Origin: an uncultured Bdellovibrionales bacterium
Lineage (GTDB): Bacteria > Patescibacteriota > Minisyncoccia > Moranbacterales > GWC2-37-73
NCBI GenBank assembly: GCA_964484505.1
Contig: CAZAFB010000006.1
Location: 14,337-78,336, forward strand
Reading direction: 5' to 3'
DNA: 64,000 nucleotides
The translations under genes and the position numbers were made by a program. Below the pieces are notes generated by a model, which worked only from the letters and a program-made list of their open reading frames with translations, was not told where the DNA came from and did no database searches. Shown here in pieces: positions 40 to 60,666 of the stretch (positions within the stretch are counted from its first letter, which is position 1; each line of letters starts with the position of its first letter).

Positions 40-543
40 ATGGAGGTTTTTGAAGATGAAGTCATCAGACCCGATGAGAAAGATGGGATTTGCGGTATTG
101 TCAAAATATCAGACGGTGTTTGCATTCTCCCGATTGACGACAACGGTTACGTTTATTTGGTAGATCAATTTCGTTATGCCCTAGGAAAAAATGTTATTGA
201 AGTTGCAGGCGGCTCGCTTGAAAAAGGTGAAGAAACATTAGAGGCTGCCAAAAGGGAACTTCAGGAAGAAGTTGGCATATTGGCTGATGAATTCATTTCT
301 TTGGGCACAGTACGTCCGCTAACAACAATCATTAAGTCTTCATCCACTCTCTGTTTGGCTCGGAAATTGCATTTCGTCGAAGCCACTCCCGAAACAACAG
401 AAAAAATCAAAGTCCTGAAGGTTAAATTTGAAGAAGCAGTCGAAATGGTCATGGATGGCAGAATCAATCACGGACCAAGCTGCGTATTGATTTTAAAAGC
501 AAAAGAACATCTTCAATCACTCCCCCAACACATGCAACTCTGA
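40..543 (+). CDS. Nudix hydrolase (ADP-ribose pyrophosphatase-like)
   Basis: Canonical Nudix box GGSLEKGEETLEAAKRELQEEVGI in the 167-aa ORF. Confidence 0.8.
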   Translation: MEVFEDEVIRPDEKDGICGIVKISDGVCILPIDDNGYVYLVDQFRYALGKNVIEVAGGSLEKGEETLEAAKRELQEEVGILADEFISLGTVRPLTTIIKSSSTLCLARKLHFVEATPETTEKIKVLKVKFEEAVEMVMDGRINHGPSCVLILKAKEHLQSLPQHMQL

Positions 544-2316
544 AATCGCGCGGGTGAGGGCGACGTAGAGAAGGTCGCGATCAATGCGGGATTTTTCGCG
601 TGTCAGCTCATCGGCGAAATCAATATTTTCTTTGGCGCGCATCGCCGCAAAATCCATGCCCACCAAACACACCGCGTCAAACTCCACGCCTTGCGCTTCA
701 TGCATCGTCATCACATGTACTTTGTCGTTTACTGCAAAAGCTTCGCGCAATTTCAAAAGCTTGATTTCTTCCCTGGCCAACACGCCCACGCTGCCACCAT
801 CCAGATTATCAATGATTTTATTGATATAGGATATTTCTTCATCCAATGATTCACAACTCATCTCGGCAACTTCCTTGCCTTCCTTGATACCTTCCGGAAT
901 TTCAATCGCGTATCCCAAAGATTTGATATATTCCAAAATATTCTTGGTATTGCGATATACTTTTTGCAAAACTACTTTTCTTTCCCCTTCTATATTCTCA
1001 CCTATTTGTTGCCAATCACGAATCGTCCCCAGTCGCACCTGCTGCGCCGTGTCCCCAACATAGAGCATTGAGCGCGCTTTGCTGCTGATGCATGATTTAA
1101 TCAAGGAAAGTTGTTCCGGCAAATAGTTTTGAAACTCATCCATTACTGCCAAGGAATATTCCAGCGGCACAAAACCTCTCTTCTTTCTGATCAGTCCGTT
1201 TTTCATTTCAATATATTGATCTTTGATCACGCCAAGCGACTCATTGGTATTCAGATATGCTTTAAGCAAAATCACCAGATCGATGCGATCAAGTTTCTTT
1301 TCTTTCTTTTGCCTGGAAAACAATCTTTTTTGCTCCGGGCTGAAATATGGAAAATATATGTTTTCCAAAACCGCATAGGCGCTTCGCTTGGAAAACTCCC
1401 CGATTTTGGCGTGGCGCATGGCTTTGATTTTTTGAAATTCATAGGCATCTTTCTCTTTTTCGTCCGTGCCATATCTTATTGCATATTGCAAATCAAGGCT
1501 CAGGATTTGCAGCGCCCATTCGGAAAATGTGGTAATCAAAACATCGTCAATGCCAAGCTCCGGAAGTAGCTGCGAAAAATATTCTTTTGTGCCATTATCT
1601 TGTACAAACACAATAATCGAATCGCTGGCATAGATATTTGCCAAATCCGGAGATTGCACCAAATAGGCGACGCGGTGCAACGCCAACGTTGTCTTGCCGC
1701 TTCCTGCCGGGCCGGAAATCAAAAATGATCCCACGTGATGCGCGCGAATCACCTGGTCTTGCGCCTTTTCCATCTGCGCCACGATTTCCGGCAGCACAAA
1801 ACCGGTCTTGCGATTGGAAAAATATTCTTGATAGATCAACTCGCGCGCCTTGCCAACTTCTTCCGTCGCCAAAAATTTCACTTTGCCATTAACAATCATA
1901 TATTGATCCTTGCGAAGCATTTGGGCTTTTTGCATTTTGCCGTCAGGTCTTTCATATTCCACTGCCCCGGGATTTTCAAAACGCATTTGAGAAGCAGGCG
2001 TTATCCAGGAATATATTTCCTCATCGCCGAAACCGAATTTACCAAAATAGATACTCTTGGTCTCCTTTTCACCATCCCACACCACATCGCAGCGCACGAA
2101 ATATGGCGACCCTTCCAAATGCGCCAACTCTCCCAAACGCTTTTCGTTATATTGCAAAATGCGATGTTCAACCACAACATCGGCGCTACGAACCGATTTT
2201 AAATCCTGTTTCGCTTTGGAAACAAGTTGAACCAGTTTCGTTTTTTCATTCATAATCCGCTCACACACTGAAGCGACGTGCTTTCTCGCACTCTCTAAGA
2301 TTTTTTCCTTTTCCAT
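517..2316 (-). CDS. UvrD/Rep/HelD-like SF1 DNA helicase
   Basis: Walker A ISGPAGSGKTTLALHRV. C-terminal UvrD-like motifs (VHVMTMHEAQGVEFD, LYVALTRA). An N-terminal ~200-aa extension resembles helicase IV/HelD. Start placed at MEKEK (2316) because a hairpin plus U-run terminator for the upstream gene lies at 2337-2375; the ORF track extends to 2424. Confidence 0.75.
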   Translation of the reverse strand: MEKEKILESARKHVASVCERIMNEKTKLVQLVSKAKQDLKSVRSADVVVEHRILQYNEKRLGELAHLEGSPYFVRCDVVWDGEKETKSIYFGKFGFGDEEIYSWITPASQMRFENPGAVEYERPDGKMQKAQMLRKDQYMIVNGKVKFLATEEVGKARELIYQEYFSNRKTGFVLPEIVAQMEKAQDQVIRAHHVGSFLISGPAGSGKTTLALHRVAYLVQSPDLANIYASDSIIVFVQDNGTKEYFSQLLPELGIDDVLITTFSEWALQILSLDLQYAIRYGTDEKEKDAYEFQKIKAMRHAKIGEFSKRSAYAVLENIYFPYFSPEQKRLFSRQKKEKKLDRIDLVILLKAYLNTNESLGVIKDQYIEMKNGLIRKKRGFVPLEYSLAVMDEFQNYLPEQLSLIKSCISSKARSMLYVGDTAQQVRLGTIRDWQQIGENIEGERKVVLQKVYRNTKNILEYIKSLGYAIEIPEGIKEGKEVAEMSCESLDEEISYINKIIDNLDGGSVGVLAREEIKLLKLREAFAVNDKVHVMTMHEAQGVEFDAVCLVGMDFAAMRAKENIDFADELTREKSRIDRDLLYVALTRAISELHVLGE

Positions 2317-7870: not shown

Positions 7871-9256
7871 CTACTTCAAATTCTCTTCGAAATATTTTTC
7901 AAGCTGATCGATGGCGATTCTTTCTTGTTTCATCGTGTCACGATCGCGGACAGTGACAGCGCCGTCTTCAAGCGATTCAAAATCTACCGTCACGCAATAT
8001 GGCGTGCCGATTTCATCTTGCCGGCGATAACGCTTGCCCACATTGCCATTGTCATCAAACTCGCACATATATTTCTGTTTGAGCGTGTCATATATTTCGC
8101 GAGCTTTGGCGACCAACTCCGGCTTGTTCTTGAGCAGCGGAAAAACCGCAACTTTAACAGGCGCTAATTTCTTAGGTAATTTAAGAACTGTGCGTACGTC
8201 GTTTTCTCCAACTTTTTCTTCGACATACGCTTCCGTGAGTACCGCCAAGAATGTACGATCCAAACCGACCGATGTTTCCACAATCCATGGCACATATTTC
8301 TCATTAGTCTGCGGATCGCGATATGACAAATCGACGCCGGAAAATTTGGAATGCTGAGTGAGATCATAGTCGCTGCGATTGTGAATGCCTTCCAGCTCTT
8401 TGAATCCGAATGGGAATTTATATTCAATATCCCAAGCGGCCTTGGCATAAAAAACCAAATTCTCATGCTCGTGCCATTTCAGATTTTCCTCTTTGATTCC
8501 GAGATCAAGATAATATTGCCAACGCTTCACCCGCCATTGTTCATAGGTCTCCGCGGCCTGATCGGGATGCACGAAATATTGCATTTCCATCTGTTCAAAT
8601 TCACGCTTTCTGAAAATGAATTGGCGCGCCGTGATTTCATTGCGAAATGCTTTGCCGATTTGTGCGATGCCAAACGGAATTTTCACCCGCGTCGAATCAA
8701 GTACATTTTTGTAATTCACATATATTCCTTGGCATGTTTCCCCGCGAAGATATGTCGGCTCTTTCGTCCAATCACTCGTAAAGTTCCCCAAATTGGATTG
8801 CACCAGCAAATTGAATTTTTTTGCTTCGGAAAAATTTCTCTTACCACATTTCGGACATGCTATTTTGTCCCTGTTTTCAATCATCAACTGGTTGATTTGT
8901 TCTTCCGTCATTTTTTCATCCGCAAAAACTCCGATTTCTTCAAGCAAGTGATCGACGCGCGCGCGAAAGTGACATTCTTTGCATTCAGCAAGTGGATCGG
9001 AAAATCCACTGACATGCCCTGATGCTTCCCAGACTTTCGGATGCATGAAAATCGCACTGTCCAACCCGACGATATTCTCATGGTCTTGCACCATCGCTTT
9101 CCACCAAGCATCGCGGATGTTTTTTGCAAGCTCCACGCCATATGGCCCGAAATCATATACCGCTGCAAACCCGCCATAAATCTCCGATGACGGGAACACA
9201 AACCCCCTGCGCTTTGCAAGTGATACCAATTTATCCATTGTAATTTGTTCTGCCAT
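7871..9256 (-). CDS. glyQS: glycyl-tRNA synthetase (dimeric class II, GlyQS type)
   Basis: N-terminus MAEQITMDKLVSLAKRRGFVFPSSEIYGG...; class II aaRS motifs; 461 aa. Confidence 0.9.
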   Translation of the reverse strand: MAEQITMDKLVSLAKRRGFVFPSSEIYGGFAAVYDFGPYGVELAKNIRDAWWKAMVQDHENIVGLDSAIFMHPKVWEASGHVSGFSDPLAECKECHFRARVDHLLEEIGVFADEKMTEEQINQLMIENRDKIACPKCGKRNFSEAKKFNLLVQSNLGNFTSDWTKEPTYLRGETCQGIYVNYKNVLDSTRVKIPFGIAQIGKAFRNEITARQFIFRKREFEQMEMQYFVHPDQAAETYEQWRVKRWQYYLDLGIKEENLKWHEHENLVFYAKAAWDIEYKFPFGFKELEGIHNRSDYDLTQHSKFSGVDLSYRDPQTNEKYVPWIVETSVGLDRTFLAVLTEAYVEEKVGENDVRTVLKLPKKLAPVKVAVFPLLKNKPELVAKAREIYDTLKQKYMCEFDDNGNVGKRYRRQDEIGTPYCVTVDFESLEDGAVTVRDRDTMKQERIAIDQLEKYFEENLK

Positions 9257-17275: not shown

Positions 17276-17346
17276 CACGGGGTGAGGGAATCGAACCCCC
17301 GCCAAAAGTTTTGGAGACTCTCGTTCTACCACTAAACTAACCCCGC
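17276..17346 (-). tRNA. tRNA-Trp (anticodon CCA), no encoded CCA end
   Basis: Folded by hand: acceptor GCGGGGU/ACCCCGU, anticodon loop CUCCAAA, T-loop GGUUCGAUUCC. Confidence 0.85.
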
Positions 17347-17417
17347 CTTCGTCCGCCGGAGCGGACTTCGGCGGGCAAGCCCGCATAGCCGCGAAGGCGG
17401 AATTTTCTATTTCAAAA

Positions 17418-17582
17418 TCACTTCATCTCCTTATGCAGCGTATGCTTTCTGCAGCGATTGCAGAATTTGTTCACTTCCAATTTTTCCTTGATTTTCTTCT
17501 TGTTGCGTGAAGTGTAATAATTAATTTCCTTGCATTCACTGCAACGAAGCTTCACCATATTTTCCTTAGTTTTAGTCGCCAT
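17418..17582 (-). CDS. rpmG: 50S ribosomal protein L33
   Basis: [29 protein letters not shown]...[14 protein letters not shown]; four-Cys zinc ribbon typical of L33. Confidence 0.8.
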
Positions 17583-17908
17583 GTTTGTCTGTGAGGTACG
17601 AGCAGCTACAAACATGAGCGTCCCGCACCAATTCTCTTATTAAAATCTAAATTATTTATTCACTAAGCCATAGGCGTTTCCGCGCGATAAAATGACAAAT
17701 ATCACTGACCAAATTCGGAATTTGGTGCGGGAGGCCATTCCTATTTTTTTTGTTGTCGGCTGGCAACTGCCAACAAACTTGGAGCCGCTTAGCGGGATTT
17801 CACGTCGTTATCACTCCTTGAAAACCCACGGTTTTCAAGACTTTCCTCCAACAGAAAACTCCCGTTTTCCGACCCTTTCCCTGTTCAATTCTTAACTCAA
17901 AAGAGTTG

Positions 17909-17981
17909 AGCCGTTGTGCGGGATTGAACCGCAGACCTCATCCTTACCATGGATGCGCTCTACCAACTGAGCTACAACGGC
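17909..17981 (-). tRNA. tRNA-Thr (anticodon GGU)
   Basis: GCCGUUGUAGCUCAGUUGGUAGAGCGCAUCCAUGGUAAGGAUGAGGUCUGCGGUUCAAUCCCGCACAACGGCU. Confidence 0.85.
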
Positions 17982-17989
17982 AACATATC

Positions 17990-18176
17990 AATTAACTTAT
18001 AAAAAACAGCCTCGATGGATTTCCGCGTCGCTCATTTGCCGTCGCAAACGCGCTCCTTGTCCTGGGTAGCGCCAAATCCTCGCTTGCTCGAATTTGTCGG
18101 CGTTCGCTGCGGAAATTTCCTGCTGAAAATTTTCTAGCTCACTGCCACCCGTTCGAATCCCCTTTCACTATTCATA
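17990..18176 (-). ncRNA. candidate GC-rich structured RNA 'segment 2' between tRNA-Tyr and tRNA-Thr
   Basis: About 75% identical to 17109-17235, with shared hairpins. It sits inside the polycistronic tRNA unit. Confidence 0.4.
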
Positions 18177-18221
18177 TCAATGTTTTAAATTAATGCCTTG
18201 AGAGGCATTAATTTAAAACAT
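18177..18221. other. perfect ~19-bp AT-rich hairpin immediately 3' of tRNA-Tyr
   Basis: atgttttaaattaatgcct-tgag-aggcattaatttaaaacat. Confidence 0.5.
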
Positions 18222-18225
18222 TATG

Positions 18226-18308
18226 TGGGCAGGGAGGGATTCGAACCCCCGAAGACCGAAGTCGGCTGATTTACAGTCAGCTGTAATAGACCACTCTACC
18301 ACCTACCC
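18226..18308 (-). tRNA. tRNA-Tyr (anticodon GUA), long variable arm
   Basis: GGGUAGGUGGUAGAGUGG...GCUGACUGUAAAUCAGC...GGGGGUUCGAAUCCCUCCCUGCCCA. Confidence 0.85.
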
Positions 18309-18319
18309 ATTTGGTTTAT

Positions 18320-18724
18320 TCATAAACAGCTTTCCAAGCTCTTGAAATCATCAGCTGAATGAATGTGCATTTTTTGCTTATTTTTACTAGGCTCTATTCT
18401 TAATTTAAATGTACTTCTATTAATTTCAGAAACAGGAATATAATAAATATCTCTCGTCTTCCCATTGTAAGCAGCAATAACATCTATCTCTTTATCGGAA
18501 TAGTGCAACACTGACCAATTATTACTGCTTCTGCAATTAACCTCCATCGCACCATTTTTTGGCGTGACATACTTAACTTGTATCCTGATAAATCTGCCAT
18601 CCACTTCTGCAACCAAATCATATCGATTGTTTTCCCCAATAGGCATCAACACCCTCCAACCATCCTCAATAAGACGTGCGACCACATACATTTCAGCAAT
18701 ATAGCCCTTTGTCTTTTTATTCAT
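18320..18724 (-). CDS. PD-(D/E)xK nuclease, Hjc/archaeal Holliday-junction-resolvase-like
   Basis: GYIAEMYVVARLIEDGW...YDLVAE...IRIQVKY follows the G..E(R)E...D..(E/Q)xK pattern of Hjc-like nucleases; 134 aa. Confidence 0.45.
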   Translation of the reverse strand: MNKKTKGYIAEMYVVARLIEDGWRVLMPIGENNRYDLVAEVDGRFIRIQVKYVTPKNGAMEVNCRSSNNWSVLHYSDKEIDVIAAYNGKTRDIYYIPVSEINRSTFKLRIEPSKNKQKMHIHSADDFKSLESCL

Positions 18725-18748
18725 TGTTTTATATTACCAATTTCCCTG

Positions 18749-18820
18749 AGCCGACGAAGGGATTTGAACCCATAACCTTCACTTTACAAAAGTGTTGCTC
18801 TACCGTTGAGCTACGTCGGC
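18749..18820 (-). tRNA. tRNA-Thr (anticodon UGU)
   Basis: GCCGACGUAGCUCAACGGUAGAGCAACACUUUUGUAAAGUGAAGGUUAUGGGUUCAAAUCCCUUCGUCGGCU. One U-U mismatch in the T-stem. Confidence 0.75.
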
Positions 18821-53745: not shown

Positions 53746-54606
53746 TTATTCCAACGGACTTTTGATATTTTTCAGATTATTACTTGTGACTTTCGTGTAT
53801 ATTTGGGTCGTTTCCAGCTTTGCATGCCCCAAAAGCTCCTGGATATATCGTATATTAGTACCAGCTTCCAGTAAATGGGTGGCAAAAGAATGACGAAGCG
53901 TATGGCAAGAAACCTTTTTCATTATTTCAGCTTCTTCGGCAGCTTTCTTCACAATCTTCTCGGCACTTTCAGAAGTCAGATGTCCATTGCCTTGCGCCCC
54001 GGTGAACAAATAGTCCGCAGGTTTCTTTAGCAGCATCTGTCTTTTCAAAATAGGTATTAATTTTTCAGATAAAAGCGTGCAGCGATCTTTCTGTCCTTTC
54101 CCGCATCGCACCAGAATAAGGCCTCTATCCAAATCAAAATCACGCATTCGTATCTTGATAACCTCACTCACACGAAGTCCGGCCGAATACATTAGCGAAA
54201 TCAAAAAATGATGCTTGGGATTTGTCGTCACCGCAAGCATTCTTTGGATTTCCTCCTTACTAAGAACGGTCGGTAAATAGTTGGTCTTTTTGGCACATTT
54301 TATGTCAAAAAAGAACTTCCTATTGAGCACTTCCCGATAATAGAATTTCAAGGCATTAAGCGCAACATTTAACGTGGAACTTGCGCAACCTCTGTCTATT
54401 ATCGATTCCAAATATTTTCGAATATCATCATTCGTTACCTCCTTTGGGCTCTTTTTTATAAACTCCAAAAAAAGCCTATTGTAAAGCAAATATGATTCAG
54501 TTGTTCTTCTGCTAAAACCGCGAATCTTTAATTCCCTCTCCAAATTATATACATATTCTCTTTCTTCTGTGGTTTTTCTGCTATTTTTATGATAATATGT
54601 ATTCAT
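53746..54606 (-). CDS. tyrosine site-specific recombinase, XerC/XerD-like
   Basis: R..KGxKDR..HTLRHSFATHLL..GHAKLETTQIYTKV (catalytic Y). There is no IntI-specific insertion. Confidence 0.85.
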   Translation of the reverse strand: MNTYYHKNSRKTTEEREYVYNLERELKIRGFSRRTTESYLLYNRLFLEFIKKSPKEVTNDDIRKYLESIIDRGCASSTLNVALNALKFYYREVLNRKFFFDIKCAKKTNYLPTVLSKEEIQRMLAVTTNPKHHFLISLMYSAGLRVSEVIKIRMRDFDLDRGLILVRCGKGQKDRCTLLSEKLIPILKRQMLLKKPADYLFTGAQGNGHLTSESAEKIVKKAAEEAEIMKKVSCHTLRHSFATHLLEAGTNIRYIQELLGHAKLETTQIYTKVTSNNLKNIKSPLE

Positions 54607-54717: not shown

Positions 54718-55323
54718 ATGAAAGAAGAATTTAAAAAAATTTGGGAAATAGCCCTCCCTTATCAAGACAAACGAGACGATAAAGGTCATGCCAGAATTGT
54801 AACTGAATATGCTATTAAACTATGCGAGACTGAGAGCGTTAACGACATGATTATTGTTCCGGCTGCCATTTTACATGATATAGGCTGGAGTCAGCTTCCC
54901 AAGGAAGATTGGCAAGTTATTTTTGACCCAAACAAAACGCCGGAAATGGAATATGCGGTACGTATAAAGCACCAAGACGAGGGTGTGAAGTTAGCAGAAA
55001 AAATACTTAACGAAGCAGGCTATTCCCCAAATTTTTTTAAACCCATATTGGAAATTATCTCTCAGCACGACACCAGAAAAAAATTTTTTTCAGATGAAGA
55101 CGGTGCTATGCGTGATGCAGACAAGTTGTGGCGTTACTCCAAGACAGGTTTTGAAGCCGACCTTAAGCGAAATAATTTCACGTTCGATTTTCTTTATGAC
55201 AAAATGATGAAGCGGATTGATGAAAAAAATTTTTTCTTCTTCGAGTCAGCCAAGGATATTGCCAAGAACGAGCTTAATGATAGAAAGGAAGAATTTTTGG
55301 GCGGAAAAATTAACATCACATAA
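54718..55323 (+). CDS. HD-domain phosphohydrolase
   Basis: H...HDIG...D motif (AAILHDIGWSQL). Confidence 0.7.
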   Translation: MKEEFKKIWEIALPYQDKRDDKGHARIVTEYAIKLCETESVNDMIIVPAAILHDIGWSQLPKEDWQVIFDPNKTPEMEYAVRIKHQDEGVKLAEKILNEAGYSPNFFKPILEIISQHDTRKKFFSDEDGAMRDADKLWRYSKTGFEADLKRNNFTFDFLYDKMMKRIDEKNFFFFESAKDIAKNELNDRKEEFLGGKINIT

Positions 55324-55637: not shown

Positions 55638-55818
55638 GAAATAAAATTCTTTTTCTTTTTTAAATTTGCTTTTTTATAATAAGGAAAAATAAGTTTTTTT
55701 ATCTTTTATAGAGGGGTATAAGGTGTCTTTTTTGCTCCTGGAATCGCAAAAAAGACGATTTTATTTTTATTATAAAATACGCTATAATATATGCAGTTAA
55801 ATCTGCTATTATTAAATT

Positions 55819-57483
55819 ATGCCAAAGCTTAAAGATATCCCAAAATTTGATCGCCCCAGAGAGAAATTTCTGGAAAAAGGGCCTGATGCGCTAACTGATA
55901 GCGAGCTTTTGGCTATTTTGCTTGGTAGCGGAATCAAGGGGACGAATGTAAAGGTATTGTCACAAAAGATTTTAAGGAAATTTGGTGATAATTTGTTAAA
56001 TGTCTCGGTCGATGACTTAATGCAAGTTTCGGGAATCGGACAGGCGAAAGCATTGCAAATTTCATCGGCACTTGCTTTGACGAGAAGGATTTTTAACAAG
56101 CAAAACTCCCTGGATAATTTGATTTTATCTGCGCAAGACGCTGTCGCTCTTGTTTCGGATTTGAAGGATAAAAAGCAAGAACATCTGATTTGCCTTTATC
56201 TCAATGCTCGCAATGCCTTGATAAAAAAAGAGACAATTTCAATTGGCACCCTTGATAAAAGCATTATTCATCCAAGAGAAATTTTCGCCCCAGGACTGGA
56301 AATGCACGCCGCAGGAGTGATACTTGTCCATAATCATCCTTCCGGTGATTCAAGTCCAAGCGAGCAAGATAAACAAGTTGCAAAAAGAATTATTGAAGCA
56401 GGTCAATTGATGGGCGTAAATGTTGTTGATTTTCTGATTGTAGCAAAAAACGGAGTACATAGCATACTTGGTGATCTAAAAAATACCGAGCTGACGAACA
56501 CGGAATATGTCGCAGAAGGATCTCAAGCTTCTCTGTTCGATTTATTGGTAGATGCAAATCAATCATATTTTTATAACAAAAACTCAATGATACAAAAGAA
56601 AAACAATAAATTGAAATTCATAGATTTATTTGCGGGAATTGGCGGTTTTCATATAGCATTTCACAATGCTGGAGCAGAATGTGTCTTCGTGTCCGAGTGG
56701 GACGGACCTGCTCAAAAAACATACAGACACAATCTTTACAAGGTTTCTCCCGAAATGTTTGATTCCGGAAATTTTATCGGAGATATTACGAAAGTTAAAC
56801 CTAAAGATATCCCTGATTTTGATATTTTGACTGCGGGATTTCCTTGTCAGCCATTTTCTCAGGCCGGTTTTAAAAAAGGGTTTAGCGAAACTCGCGGAAC
56901 TTTGTTTTTTGATATTGTAAATATTATAAAAGAAAAAAAACCAAAGGCTTTTTTTCTGGAAAATGTACGTGGCTTATTGAGTCATGACGATGGAAAGACA
57001 TTTAAAACCATAGAAAGAATTATCAAGGAGGAGTTGGGATATTCTTTTTTCCCTCAAGTAGTTAAGGCTTCCGATTTTGGCTTGCCGCAACATCGCCCAC
57101 GTCTTTTTATGGTTGGATTCAAAGATAAAACGATACATTTCAAGTTTCCCGAGCCAGTGAAAGAACTAAAATACACCTTGTCGGATATATTCAACGGAAA
57201 ATGCGATAAAGACATTGGATTTACTTTGCGTGTTGGTGGGCGCGGAAGCAAAATAACCGATCGTAGAAATTGGGATGCTTATCGAGTTAATGGAAAAATT
57301 GTTCAGCTTGGACCGAAAGAAGGATTAAAAATGCAGGGCTTTCCCGATTGGTACGAATTTCCACCGAACTTCTCAAGAGTTCAAGCCATGAAACAACTTG
57401 GCAATTCTGTTGCCGTCCCTGCAATTCAAGCGGTGGCCGAGGAAATTGTTAAAACATTAAAAAAACATGGAAAAAGGAAATAA
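55819..57483 (+). CDS. RadC-like JAB/MPN domain fused to C5-cytosine DNA methyltransferase
   Basis: N-terminus: DSELLAILLGSG...HNHPSG (RadC/UPF0758). C-terminus: FAGIGGF (motif I), GFPCQPFSQAG (motif IV), ENVRGL (motif VI). Confidence 0.8.
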   Translation: MPKLKDIPKFDRPREKFLEKGPDALTDSELLAILLGSGIKGTNVKVLSQKILRKFGDNLLNVSVDDLMQVSGIGQAKALQISSALALTRRIFNKQNSLDNLILSAQDAVALVSDLKDKKQEHLICLYLNARNALIKKETISIGTLDKSIIHPREIFAPGLEMHAAGVILVHNHPSGDSSPSEQDKQVAKRIIEAGQLMGVNVVDFLIVAKNGVHSILGDLKNTELTNTEYVAEGSQASLFDLLVDANQSYFYNKNSMIQKKNNKLKFIDLFAGIGGFHIAFHNAGAECVFVSEWDGPAQKTYRHNLYKVSPEMFDSGNFIGDITKVKPKDIPDFDILTAGFPCQPFSQAGFKKGFSETRGTLFFDIVNIIKEKKPKAFFLENVRGLLSHDDGKTFKTIERIIKEELGYSFFPQVVKASDFGLPQHRPRLFMVGFKDKTIHFKFPEPVKELKYTLSDIFNGKCDKDIGFTLRVGGRGSKITDRRNWDAYRVNGKIVQLGPKEGLKMQGFPDWYEFPPNFSRVQAMKQLGNSVAVPAIQAVAEEIVKTLKKHGKRK

Positions 57484-58555
57484 TAAAGGAGAATGGTCGG
57501 AATTTTACGCTTTCCTAAAAATATTAGATGAAAGAAAAATTTTTGCCGCTGATAAAAATCTCGAAATAATTGACGGGAAATTTTTTGTTTTTCATAAAAT
57601 TATCAGGGAGGAAAAAGATGAATCGACTAAAATTTACGATATTTCCCAGTCGGCAACTCAAGTCTTGATAACCGATGAGGATGGTAGGCTATTGAAAGAG
57701 TTTAAAACCGATTCACTCAAGGAAAAAACTTTAAAAATATTTGAAAGAATAAAAAACGAAAAAAGTCGTTCTTTCAATATTCCCGAAGCGCAAGAGTTGA
57801 TGAAAGAATTGCTTTGCACAAAAGTCAAAGCCAGCAATGCAAAAAAAGCCGATTTAGTGGCGATTATTTACGATAGAATTTCAAAAACAATGCCAATGCT
57901 CGGTTTTTCCATAAAGTCCATGGTCGGTGGTGCCTCCACATTGTTGAATCCCGGGCAAACAACAAATTTCATTTATGAAATTAAAGGATTCAGTGGGAAT
58001 GTTTCAGAAGTTAATGCAATTCAAACAAAAGCTCAAATTCGCGACCGTGTAAGAAAAATTGCGGAGCAAGGCGGAACTTTTGAATACATGGGTGTTTCAA
58101 ATGAACAATTTGGATTCAATATGAAAATGATTGACACAGTGTTGCCTGAATTTATAGCCCAAATGCTTTTGGACTTTTTTTCAAACTCACACAGAACGGT
58201 TGCTGATTTGACAAAAGAGCTGTCCGAGAATGAGAATATCAATAAAAAATTTGGTTTATCGCTGACAAATTATGAATACAAAATTAAAAACTTTCTGGAT
58301 GCGGTTGCGCTCGGAATGGTGCCAAGTAAACCATGGGACGGATTTTCAAAGGCACACGGAGGTTATATTGTGGTAAAAGAAAACGGCGATGTTGTTTGCT
58401 ATCACTTGTATAACAGAGATGAGTTTCGTTCCTATTTATATGAAAATACCAGATTTGATGCACCAAGCACGACCAGGTATGGCTATGGTGAATTATATGA
58501 AGAAAATGGCAAACTGTTTTTTAAATTGAATTTGCAAATCAGGTTTTTGAAATAA
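57467..58555 (+). CDS. type II restriction endonuclease (HpaII-like family, tentative)
   Basis: Position between the m5C MTase and vsr. N-terminus NKGEWSEFYAFLKIL resembles the HpaII REase family. Confidence 0.5.
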   Translation: MEKGNNKGEWSEFYAFLKILDERKIFAADKNLEIIDGKFFVFHKIIREEKDESTKIYDISQSATQVLITDEDGRLLKEFKTDSLKEKTLKIFERIKNEKSRSFNIPEAQELMKELLCTKVKASNAKKADLVAIIYDRISKTMPMLGFSIKSMVGGASTLLNPGQTTNFIYEIKGFSGNVSEVNAIQTKAQIRDRVRKIAEQGGTFEYMGVSNEQFGFNMKMIDTVLPEFIAQMLLDFFSNSHRTVADLTKELSENENINKKFGLSLTNYEYKIKNFLDAVALGMVPSKPWDGFSKAHGGYIVVKENGDVVCYHLYNRDEFRSYLYENTRFDAPSTTRYGYGELYEENGKLFFKLNLQIRFLK

Positions 58556-58562
58556 AACGGGT

Positions 58563-58967
58563 ATGGCTGATATTTTTTCCAAAAAGAAGCGCAGTGAGAT
58601 AATGTCAAAAGTTAGAAGTAAAGACAGTAAGATAGAAGTTGAATTTCGGAAAAAATTGTGGAAAGCGGGATTCCGTTATCGTAAAAACTCAACAAAATAT
58701 TTCGGCAAGCCTGACATTGTTTTGCCGAAATACAAAACCGTAATTTTCATAGATTCTTGTTTTTGGCACGGATGCAAAAAACACAGCTCAATACCCAAAA
58801 CTCGAAAAAAATTTTGGGAAACAAAAATTGAACGCAATAGAGAAAGGGACCAGGAGGTTAGTAAATATTACAAAAAACAGGGTTGGAATATATTTAGAAT
58901 TTGGGAACATAATTTGAAAAATGATTCAGAAAAGGTTTTGAATATAATTTTAGAAAAAATTATTTAG
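58563..58967 (+). CDS. vsr: very-short-patch-repair endonuclease
   Basis: FIDSCFWHGC motif. Confidence 0.85.
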   Translation: MADIFSKKKRSEIMSKVRSKDSKIEVEFRKKLWKAGFRYRKNSTKYFGKPDIVLPKYKTVIFIDSCFWHGCKKHSSIPKTRKKFWETKIERNRERDQEVSKYYKKQGWNIFRIWEHNLKNDSEKVLNIILEKII

Positions 58968-58968
58968 C

Positions 58969-60666
58969 ATGAAGCTTAAAAAAATTGTTATACAAAATTT
59001 TAAATCGATTATAAATGATGAGGTTATTTTTAATGACTTCACTTTTTTTGTTGGAAAAAATAATTATGGGAAGTCTAATTATTTAAGAGCGGTTGACCAT
59101 TTGCTTAGTTTTTCAAAAACATACGGAAATGTCAAAGAAATTCAAAATAATAAGGAAAACCCAATTGTTATTGACGGATGGTTTGAGGGTGTAGAAAAAT
59201 ATACGCCACAGCTGAAAGACAGTAAACACAAAGAGGCTGTTGAAAAATTAATTAACAGTGACAATTTAATTCAGTTGCGTTTAACTATAAACTTAGACGG
59301 TCAAGGCGAAACATCTCTTATTGATCCTTCAAATAGTGAAACCGTAAATCCGACTGGTTGGTCAACAAACTGTAAAAAGTTATTTCCAGAAACTATTTTT
59401 ATTCCTGCTACTGCAGACACTGCTGACGAACTGCAAGAAAAAGCTTCAACAGCATTATCAAAAATAAAAAAAGAAGTAATGCAACAGTTTTTTACTTCCT
59501 TATCGTCAAAGATTGATACAGCATTTGAGCCAATCGATAAATTTTTACATGGCGAAGAAAAAGACAGATCGGAAGATTTAAAAAATCTAGAAAATGATTT
59601 TGCTGAAGAAATGATGGGTGAATTTTCTACAACAAAGCCATCAATAAAATTCACTTTGCCAGACTCAAGTTTTATCGGCAAAGGAATGAAAATTAACCTT
59701 CATGATGGGTTTCACGATTGCGATATTGAGCAAAAAGGACATGGACTCCAGAGAACGGCTCTCTTTGCTTTAATTCGTCTTTTATCCAAGCACAATTCTT
59801 CAAGCCAAACAAAACCAGCACCAATATTTTTAATTGAAGAACTGGAAGCGTTTTTGCATCCATCTGCTCAAAAAAGATTAGCTGAAAGCATGGAAAAAAT
59901 GGCTGGAAAATATCAAACAATTGCAACAACCCATTCACCATTCGTTTTGACCGAAAAGCTTTTGGGCGGTTATAGAAAAATATTTCGTAATGATAAAGAA
60001 GGATCCAAGTGTTGCGGACCACAGAAAAATCATGATGAATTTAAAAAGAAAGACTATGATGTCGTTAAAAATTCTTTATCGCACACTGGAAATTTAATAA
60101 GTCTGTTTTCAGACATTGTGGTAGTTGTTGAAGGAAGGGAGGATAGCGGTTTTTATCCAACCGTATTGGAATTATTGAAAAAAGAAGAAAACGGACTAGT
60201 TTCCTTTGTCGAAACTGTTGGGGGAGGAAATAGTAATTTTCATGTATCGTATAACTTTTTCAAACTTATGGGATTCAAGAAAATTTTTGTTATCTGTGAT
60301 TTGGATTGTCTCTTTGATACAAATTTTAAGGAGTTGTTAAAAACTGTTTCTGTTGACTCTGATTTTATTGATGATTTTAGGAAAGATATCGGCTTTTCTG
60401 GTGCTGGACAGCCAGGAACGGAGTTTGTTTTATCAAATATTGAAAAAATTGATAATAAAAAAATAACAGATAAAATTTCTGAGTTGGCAAAAATAAATAT
60501 TTTTGTATTAAAAAATGGAACACCGGAAAATTATTATTCAGATGATTTCAAAAAGGACAATAGCGCAAGAAATGTTAAAAAAATATGGGAATATTTAACA
60601 AGCAAAGAAGATTTGAAAAACATAGAAGAGCTAGGTAGTATCATGAATCCGATTTTAAATTCATAA
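58969..60666 (+). CDS. OLD-family ATP-dependent nuclease (ABC-type ATPase plus Toprim)
   Basis: N-terminal IQNFKSI...FVGKNNYGKSNYLRAV (AAA_15/21). Q-loop and signature regions. C-terminal Toprim VVVEGREDSGF...FVICDLD. Confidence 0.7.
   Translation: MKLKKIVIQNFKSIINDEVIFNDFTFFVGKNNYGKSNYLRAVDHLLSFSKTYGNVKEIQNNKENPIVIDGWFEGVEKYTPQLKDSKHKEAVEKLINSDNLIQLRLTINLDGQGETSLIDPSNSETVNPTGWSTNCKKLFPETIFIPATADTADELQEKASTALSKIKKEVMQQFFTSLSSKIDTAFEPIDKFLHGEEKDRSEDLKNLENDFAEEMMGEFSTTKPSIKFTLPDSSFIGKGMKINLHDGFHDCDIEQKGHGLQRTALFALIRLLSKHNSSSQTKPAPIFLIEELEAFLHPSAQKRLAESMEKMAGKYQTIATTHSPFVLTEKLLGGYRKIFRNDKEGSKCCGPQKNHDEFKKKDYDVVKNSLSHTGNLISLFSDIVVVVEGREDSGFYPTVLELLKKEENGLVSFVETVGGGNSNFHVSYNFFKLMGFKKIFVICDLDCLFDTNFKELLKTVSVDSDFIDDFRKDIGFSGAGQPGTEFVLSNIEKIDNKKITDKISELAKINIFVLKNGTPENYYSDDFKKDNSARNVKKIWEYLTSKEDLKNIEELGSIMNPILNS

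Follow-up and report, generated by a model that had tools for sequence, protein, structure and literature searches.

Why would the modification methyltransferase of a restriction-modification (RM) system carry a complete RadC protein at its N terminus? The question is raised by an open reading frame (ORF) at positions 55819..57483 (+) of a 64,000-nucleotide stretch, called the window here, taken from contig CAZAFB010000006.1 (assembly GCA_964484505.1, positions 14,337 to 78,336) of an uncultured bacterium placed by GTDB within the Patescibacteriota. A first-pass annotation of the window had proposed that a RadC-like JAB domain and a C5-cytosine methyltransferase are fused in frame in this ORF, and had suggested that a DNA-binding or DNA-processing module could thereby be coupled to methylation, for instance to protect incoming DNA. 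The fusion itself was borne out. The ORF list contains one ATG-initiated frame, without a stop or frame change, that encodes 554 amino acids (aa) plus the stop codon, and the product matches the Pfam and NCBIfam profiles of both families. It consists of a RadC head, a short extension, a spacer, and the methyltransferase body.

Domain organization of the fusion protein

The head is a complete RadC. It comprises a UPF0758_N/helix-hairpin-helix (HhH) DNA-binding domain (55831..56052 (+), aa 5–78; PF20582, 84.8 bits against a Pfam cut-off of 27.1) and a RadC-type JAB domain (56128..56466 (+), aa 104–216; PF04002, 127.3 bits). The separate HHH profile of Pfam matched aa 57–81 weakly (19.2 bits, under the 24-bit cut-off), and the HhH region is helical in the AlphaFold2 (AF2) model. 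The JAB part matched PDB entry 2QLC, a RadC homologue and the sole solved RadC fragment, with E=9e-26. As a whole, the protein scored above the curated RadC cut-offs, with 221.8 bits against 180 for the NCBIfam equivalog NF000642 and 215.5 against 133.85 for TIGR00608. The figure of ~220 N-terminal aa given earlier for the RadC part was correct, and the HNHPSG motif noted there was located at aa 171–176. The JAMM metal-site motif reads H171-N-H173-P-S-G...S181-x-x-D184 (56329..56370 (+)), with the upstream glutamate E121 encoded at 56179..56181. The residues E121, H171, H173, S181, and D184 were invariant in an alignment of 90 fusions.

The C5-cytosine DNA methyltransferase domain occupies 56611..57480 (+), aa 265–554 (PF00145, 271 bits over aa 265 to ~550; NCBIfam dcm TIGR00675, 276.7 bits against a cut-off of 100.65). 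Motif I reads FAGIGG, and the catalytic P342-C343 pair is encoded at 56842..56847. Motifs I (F271-x-G-x-G), IV (P342-C343), VI (E381-N-V), VIII (R426-x-R428), and X (G528-N) were invariant among the 90 sequences. In a Foldseek search of the PDB, the C-terminal body matched M.HhaI (2uz4_A) with E=2.9e-27, a template modeling score normalized to the target of 0.73, and 38% identity. Because both the JAMM motif and the methyltransferase motifs are invariant, the two halves look catalytically competent as judged from their sequences.

Between the two halves lies a variable, basic, disordered spacer (56572..56610 (+), aa 252–264) that differs in length and sequence among homologues. The AF2 model had a mean predicted local distance difference test score (pLDDT) of 82 and a predicted template modeling score (pTM) of 0.54. 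Two well-folded bodies were arranged in it like beads on a string, joined by a segment of ~18 aa (aa 245–262) with pLDDT <50. In the model, the RadC head is flexibly tethered to the methyltransferase.

The assignment of the methyltransferase to a type II RM system, also made in the first-pass annotation, was confirmed by the adjoining gene. This encodes an HpaII-family restriction endonuclease (57467..58555 (+); PF09561, 369.7 bits over the full profile; PADLOC REase_II) and shares 17 nt with the fusion ORF. It is followed by a gene for a Vsr very-short-patch T:G mismatch endonuclease (58563..58967 (+); PF03852, 105.3 bits; TIGR00632, 133.7 bits). In this HpaII-like type II RM operon, composed of M, R, and Vsr, the fusion is the subunit for modification, and from the RE_HpaII partner alone the target would be expected to be CCGG.

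Within the methyltransferase gene, a palindromic A8...T7 homopolymer pair (window 56931..56957, codons KEKKPKAFF) was flagged as terminator-like on the minus strand, and it could be prone to slippage. Truncated methyltransferase genes were observed at the homologous loci L020, L023, L024, L029, and L031, not obviously at the position of this pair.

The fusion is genuine and selectively maintained

The fusion protein is genuine and under selection. The identical 554-aa protein was found on contigs from three samples, two metagenomes of the Joint Genome Institute (JGI) and one SRA run. A search of 5.8 billion proteins recovered at least 115 homologue clusters with the same architecture at 57–98% identity. 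Among the best 120 clusters (at 90% identity), all but ~5, which were shorter and apparently partial, showed the same three Pfam domains with 98–100% query coverage. No frameshift was detected, and the junction is in frame. The fusion clusters derive from metagenome-assembled genomes (MAGs) of Moran-, Gracili-, Beckwith-, Kerfeld-, and Parcubacteria. In the databases, the fusions are named after one half or the other: "DNA repair protein RadC" at NCBI and "DNA (cytosine-5)-methyltransferase 1" at JGI.

Selection was assessed in a codon comparison with 12 homologues. The ratio of nonsynonymous to synonymous substitution rates (dN/dS) was 0.03–0.05 on the HhH domain, 0.02–0.12 on the JAB domain, and 0.02–0.17 on the extension and junction segment (aa 221–252); since dS ranged from 0.85 to saturation and was saturated in many pairs, these ratios are upper-level indications only. 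Constraint on the head equaled that on the methyltransferase domain in same-type comparisons. The spacer of ~12 aa (aa 253–264) had a high dN and little or no constraint. The junction remained in frame even though synonymous sites were saturated between homologues.

The head is a portable module of restriction-modification systems

The first-pass annotation had treated the fusion as a one-off; it is instead one member of a large family. In homologues at 57–66% overall identity the head was nearly unchanged, whereas the methyltransferase bodies and partner endonucleases differed. The partner endonuclease was of the NgoFVII type for P0112, of the HaeII type for P0115 (with a C-protein), and of the SacI type for P0116 (with a C-protein and GmrSD); a further NgoFVII-type nuclease comes after P0125. 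Among the HpaII-, HaeII-, and SacI-type fusions, the head was ~90% identical in protein and 77–87% in DNA, while identity to the window protein fell to 16–70% over most of the methyltransferase part.

When 1.84 billion representatives were searched exhaustively without a profile and then scanned with Pfam, the head with its extension turned up on other methyltransferase classes as well. It was found on D12-class (Dam-like) N6-adenine methyltransferases (P0134, P0144, and P0130) and on the N6_N4 methyltransferase P0185 (NQV17896.1, from an Armatimonadota MAG), downstream of which an EcoRII-C-type nuclease is encoded. A scan of GTDB species representatives yielded 30 loci, 23 of them with both head and extension. 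Except in a few copies that were truncated or decayed, the heads ran in frame into a methyltransferase, which was a C5 enzyme of at least four target-recognition types, a D12 enzyme, or, in one case, an N6_N4 enzyme. Full-length EcoRII and Vsr were the partners at L021, and an MvaI/BcnI endonuclease at L027. Two systems contained two methyltransferases: L032 (5001..9404) encodes RadC-D12, an AlwI endonuclease, and a head-less N6_N4 methyltransferase, and L035 (5001..7710) encodes RadC-D12 plus a second, head-less D12 methyltransferase. In both, only the first methyltransferase carries the head. The stand-alone RadCs from the scan were 222–224 aa long, 41–47% identical, and ended ahead of the extension; in the loci and proteins examined, every extension-bearing head continued in frame into a methyltransferase.

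Together, head and extension make up a portable module that has been joined in frame to three chemically and structurally different methyltransferase classes (C5, D12, and N4/N6). Its partner endonucleases belong to at least seven families (HpaII, HaeII, SacI, NgoFVII, EcoRII, MvaI/BcnI, and AlwI). In a rough neighbor-joining distance tree of the heads, the methyltransferase classes were interleaved: the head of an N6_N4/MvaI system grouped with that of a C5/NgoFVII system, and a C5/NgoFVII head with that of a D12/AlwI system. The interleaving indicates that the methyltransferase/endonuclease body has been swapped repeatedly behind a head of common origin.

According to the taxon labels of the MAG records, the carriers are mostly Patescibacteria. 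D12 fusions also occurred in MAGs labeled Firestonebacteria and Atribacterota, and a few short contigs were labeled Gammaproteobacteria or Planctomycetia, which may reflect mis-binning. At locus L007 the fusion shares its contig with an ordinary RadC of 220 aa; the latter is only 47% identical to the fused head, which is therefore an extra paralogue. At the same locus (96..1511; 8410..9072), a DDE transposase precedes the HaeII-type fusion, and the stand-alone RadC adjoins an NYN-domain protein. At two further loci the RadC-methyltransferase/endonuclease pair is followed by another gene, DUF6119 (479 bits) at L025 (3671..5323) and GmrSD_N, a type IV restriction domain, at L008 (6850..8514); the cassettes sit there within variable defense islands.

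An origin of the fused head from the anti-restriction genes of mobile elements was considered and rejected. The fused head was absent from the plasmid, phage, and IMG/VR collections. IMG/VR contained no match at all, and the plasmid and phage collections held stand-alone RadC alone, with at most 41% identity and an end near aa 208–233.

A conserved extension specific to the fused head

The C-terminal extension of the head, TEYVAEGSQASLFDLLVDANQSYFY (56494..56571 (+), aa 226–251), is located past the point where RadC canonically ends (~aa 220) and ahead of the disordered tether. In the alignments it was absent from stand-alone RadC, which ends ~10 aa earlier. Among 22 diverse fusions, the columns conserved to at least 80% were Y, G, Q, L, and F alone, within the pattern Y-v-a-e-G-x-Q-x-s-L-F-d-l-l. 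The extension peptide EYVAEGSQASLFDLLVDA contains the pentapeptide Q236-A-S-L-F240 (56524..56538 (+)), a candidate sliding-clamp-binding-like motif. The form Q-x-[STGA]-L-F was present in 135 of 148 fusions. The second position was free, being occupied by S, A, T, G, V, K, M, H, I, F, Q, P, C, or N, and the most divergent fusions carried QLTLTDLL, QLTLADAF, or QITLSEYY. The motif directly precedes the disordered tether, has a pLDDT of ~70, and has further conserved residues flanking it.

The consensus of bacterial sliding-clamp-binding peptides is QL(S/D)LF, with hexapeptide variants, and the PCNA-interacting protein (PIP) box reads Q-x-x-L-x-x-aromatic-aromatic (PMC9690074). Compared at the level of the sequence, Q-x-[S/T]-L-F resembles the bacterial clamp-binding motif, and the divergent versions resemble a PIP box. 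The extension was also considered as a docking site for the cognate endonuclease; this is disfavored, as it is kept across systems with unrelated endonucleases.

One relative of the methyltransferase that lacks RadC, the C5 enzyme P0262 (338 aa), ends in ...VRQLALF*, a canonical clamp-binding pentapeptide at the extreme C terminus. It is a hint that bacterial C5 methyltransferases might dock on the clamp independently of RadC.

Possible roles of the head

Neither the chemistry of methylation nor the target sequence nor the partner endonuclease matters to the head, which for this reason most likely supplies a generic function. Since it is generic and is fused to non-C5 enzymes as well, roles tied to 5-methylcytosine (5mC), to a covalent adduct, or to docking on or proteolysis of a particular endonuclease are disfavored, and a generic service to the modification arm remains. 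A repair partner of Vsr, acting on T:G mismatches from 5mC deamination, does not account for heads on D12 and N4/N6 enzymes, which produce no 5mC, or at loci without Vsr. A protease for covalent C5-methyltransferase-DNA adducts would have no substrate in D12 and N4/N6 systems, whose enzymes form no covalent intermediate.

The explanation that we prefer, with some reserve, is that the head brings the methyltransferase to unprotected DNA, or keeps it there, so that modification outruns restriction. The HhH domain would provide sequence-independent affinity for DNA, and the Q-x-S-L-F element in the exposed extension would be a candidate for docking onto the beta sliding clamp. The head might then hold the methyltransferase on nascent DNA behind the polymerase, on repair patches, or on DNA just imported by naturally competent cells, where modification would win the race against the cognate endonuclease. 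The invariant JAMM site would imply that the head also catalyzes some DNA-processing step. With regard to DNA import, radC lies within the competence regulons of several bacteria (PMC12378983; PMC12826799), and Saccharibacteria, a candidate phyla radiation (CPR) lineage, show natural competence (PMC10187176). A bolder version appears rather doubtful: that the head docks on the beta clamp and/or the transformation or recombination machinery, that RM methyltransferases of the CPR ride with DNA synthesis and modify nascent or imported DNA at once, and that the role of RadC is to protect unmodified DNA from restriction. The coupling of a DNA-binding or DNA-processing module to methylation, as suggested at the outset, would be compatible with all of the findings and stands near the explanation preferred here.

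Several points weigh against a recruiting role of the head. To our knowledge, no biochemical activity has been established for any RadC, and the role of the head is for this reason wholly inferred. Pure targeting leaves the invariant zinc site unexplained. Hemimethylated DNA normally resists type II endonucleases, and a need for faster methylation at replication forks is therefore not obvious; moreover, C5 methyltransferases generally require duplex DNA. The clamp interpretation relates to a five-residue pattern that was noticed post hoc, and the motif stands beside the conserved Y-V-A-E-G at intermediate AF2 confidence (pLDDT ~70). Given this history, confidence, and conserved surroundings, the motif may be no more than a structural piece of the head. 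The region upstream of the fusion revealed no regulatory connection to competence.

Possible, if somewhat unlikely, is an independent function of the head. It would be a DNA-processing enzyme (nuclease-like, repair, or anti-restriction) that acts on its own substrate and is fused only for co-expression and co-inheritance with the mobile RM cassette, leaving the place and speed of methylation unaffected. The flexible tether and the low pTM suggest two autonomous bodies, and the invariant JAMM site favors catalysis over mere targeting. An adjacent gene, however, would suffice for co-expression, and a head split from its methyltransferase was not seen except in decayed copies. In favor of an independent function, RadC is found together with ArdB/ArdC anti-restriction genes on mobile elements (PMC12458937), and stand-alone RadC was present on 2381 plasmid records, 1649 of them conjugative. 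Against it, the head is always on the M gene and never on R, Vsr, or C, just one methyltransferase bears it where two are encoded, and a conserved extension specific to the fusion is present.

Less probable still is a regulatory switch, in which the JAB metallopeptidase would cut the fusion at the linker and free the methyltransferase, or would degrade or control a partner, and thereby time restriction relative to modification upon entry of the cassette. The classical activity of JAB/JAMM domains is that of isopeptidases, and the head has an intact catalytic motif; JABs of the RadC clade, however, have no groove for a ubiquitin-like tail and have been argued to be non-peptidases (PMC5512222, PMC3482391). 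The conserved segment ahead of the disordered spacer could be a processing site. Against a specific protease-substrate pair stands the diversity of the partner endonucleases, which span at least seven unrelated families and make such a pair unlikely. The operon in the window has no C-protein to delay expression of R, and its M and R genes overlap, which would leave room for such a switch. At several other loci, though, C-proteins co-occur with the head, which consequently does not replace them. The HhH domain, finally, suggests DNA as the ligand.

A transcriptional autoregulator, with the head binding the promoter of its own operon, is highly improbable. N-terminal DNA-binding additions are known on C5 methyltransferases, namely the helix-turn-helix (HTH) domains of the M.SsoII/M.EcoRII type, and the relatives P0196 and P0200 have an N-terminal sequence that appears HTH-like by eye. 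HhH domains, however, bind DNA nonspecifically, the upstream regions differ between loci, several loci encode a separate HTH C-protein, and the JAB domain with its invariant metal site would be left unexplained.

A frameshift or assembly artifact that joined two genes, or a lost stop codon that left a decaying RadC remnant, has a negligible chance of being correct: an in-frame methionine at aa 257, just ahead of methyltransferase motif I, would suit a relic, but the idea is refuted by the identical ORF in three independent samples, the same architecture in at least 115 clusters, purifying selection on head and linker, and a RadC part above the NCBIfam equivalog cut-off. Met257 was also considered as a conserved internal start for a head-less methyltransferase. 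It is not kept in homologues, and a head-less isoform is therefore not a conserved feature.

Comparison with known systems

Stand-alone RadC/YicR (UPF0758; PF20582 plus PF04002; PDB 2QLC) has the same two domains as the fusion, in the same order and with an intact JAMM motif. Canonical RadC is 220–230 aa long and ends ~10 residues past the JAB domain, whereas the 554-aa fusion runs on into the extension, tether, and methyltransferase. The HpaII system (M.HpaII, R.HpaII, and V.HpaII) shares with the operon in the window the M-R-Vsr order, the RE_HpaII endonuclease, and a C5 methyltransferase. In the prototype, which has a vsr-like gene as well, M.HpaII lacks a RadC head. Relatives of the window methyltransferase without RadC exist too, for example P0123 (313 aa, 63% identical). 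Methyltransferases of the M.SsoII/M.EcoRII type likewise bear an N-terminal addition in an RM context; theirs is an HTH domain in contrast to the HhH and JAB domains found here, for which sequence-specific operator binding is unlikely.

Published RadC fusions join RadC to HhH, ArdC, a DnaG-type primase, or a DinG/Rad3 helicase, and also occur in the polyvalent proteins that conjugative elements encode (Iyer et al. 2011, 2017). As in the fusion described here, the RadC JAB domain is joined to modules that act on DNA, with a link to conflicts over incoming DNA. The published fusions, however, are on conjugative elements and act for the invader, whereas here the RadC domain belongs to the M subunit encoded in RM operons on chromosomal contigs. 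Polyvalent proteins are encoded by phages or conjugative elements and put to use by the invader (Iyer et al. 2017), unlike the fusion, which is located in RM operons on MAG contigs. A methyltransferase fusion is not named in the main text of Iyer et al. 2011 or 2017.

Two systems offer functional parallels. DpnA of the pneumococcal DpnII system is a dedicated methylase that protects transforming DNA (PMC3812788). It is an RM-encoded device that lets methylation reach incoming DNA before restriction does, and radC is also a gene of competence regulons. DpnA, though, is a separate, competence-induced methylase for single-stranded DNA without a RadC domain, and an action of the fusion on incoming DNA is inferred. 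In DNMT1, a PCNA-binding motif (PIP box) couples methylation to replication (PMC9690074). In both cases, a flexible N-terminal region of a C5 methyltransferase contains a short, clamp-binding-like motif of the Q-x-x-L type; the cases differ in that here the motif resemblance stands alone and the bacterial clamp is DnaN. We are not aware of any report that a DNA methyltransferase of bacteria binds DnaN.

Novelty and implications

No description of a RadC-methyltransferase fusion was found in full-text literature searches, and a 2026 preprint on CPR methyltransferases contains no mention of RadC, JAB, or fusions. All of the domains are known and the proteins are already public under generic names, so the case is one of a type II RM system bearing an accessory head that is as yet undescribed, and it does not open a new category.

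Few bacterial proteins that lack a known activity are as widespread as RadC. The name of RadC stems from a misassigned mutation, and Attaiech et al. 2008 reportedly asked in their title, "RadC, a misleading name?" The repeated in-frame fusion, to three methyltransferase classes and across seven or more kinds of RM system, connects RadC with the modification arm of restriction-modification. It is strong evidence of a functional link and a new clue to the function of RadC. As a compact protein with two activities, the fusion is amenable to expression and mutation, and it offers a testable link of RadC to replication or DNA uptake. If the clamp idea is true, the fusion would represent the first bacterial RM methyltransferase coupled to replication, a counterpart of DNMT1-PCNA. 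A protective role, if true, would be the first defined role for the near-universal RadC and would explain the presence of radC in competence regulons and beside anti-restriction genes on conjugative elements. The fusion also adds a feature to the poorly known defense biology of the Patescibacteria, in which the conflict between restriction and import is acute because they depend on DNA uptake.

Genomic surroundings of the operon

A tight cluster of M, R, Vsr, and Old-like genes, all on one strand, begins with the fusion ORF. The Old-like gene encodes an ATPase with a TOPRIM nuclease domain (58969..60666 (+); PADLOC Old, 251.2 bits; Pfam AAA_15 and OLD-like_TOPRIM) and begins on the same strand 2 nt 3' of vsr. 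It probably represents a distinct defense gene within the same transcription unit. Upstream of the fusion lie genes for a tyrosine integrase (53746..54606 (-)) and an HD-domain protein (54718..55323). Because the Old-like gene abuts vsr on the same strand, the RM and Old genes form one small defense islet beside the integrase and the HD protein.

Upstream regions of the loci shared no conserved regulatory element, and only the near-identical Moraniibacteriota locus L015 aligned with the window. Promoter and terminator scans upstream of the fusion gave background levels, no remnant of a C-protein and no second RadC were found in the window, and there were no tRNA or Rfam features close to the locus. 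By eye, a hairpin (GTGTCTTTTTTGC...GCAAAAAAGACG) followed by a T-run at window 55722..55788, with TATAAT at 55783..55788, looks like the terminator of the preceding gene plus a -10 element for the operon.

Across the 64-kb window, CCGG was not avoided (ratio 1.03). A cluster of four tRNA genes lies at 17276..18820 (-) (Rfam RF00005, 57–69 bits). GGCC was rarer than expected from a second-order Markov model, with 96 occurrences observed and 152 expected (ratio 0.63), which may reflect a HaeIII-like system elsewhere.

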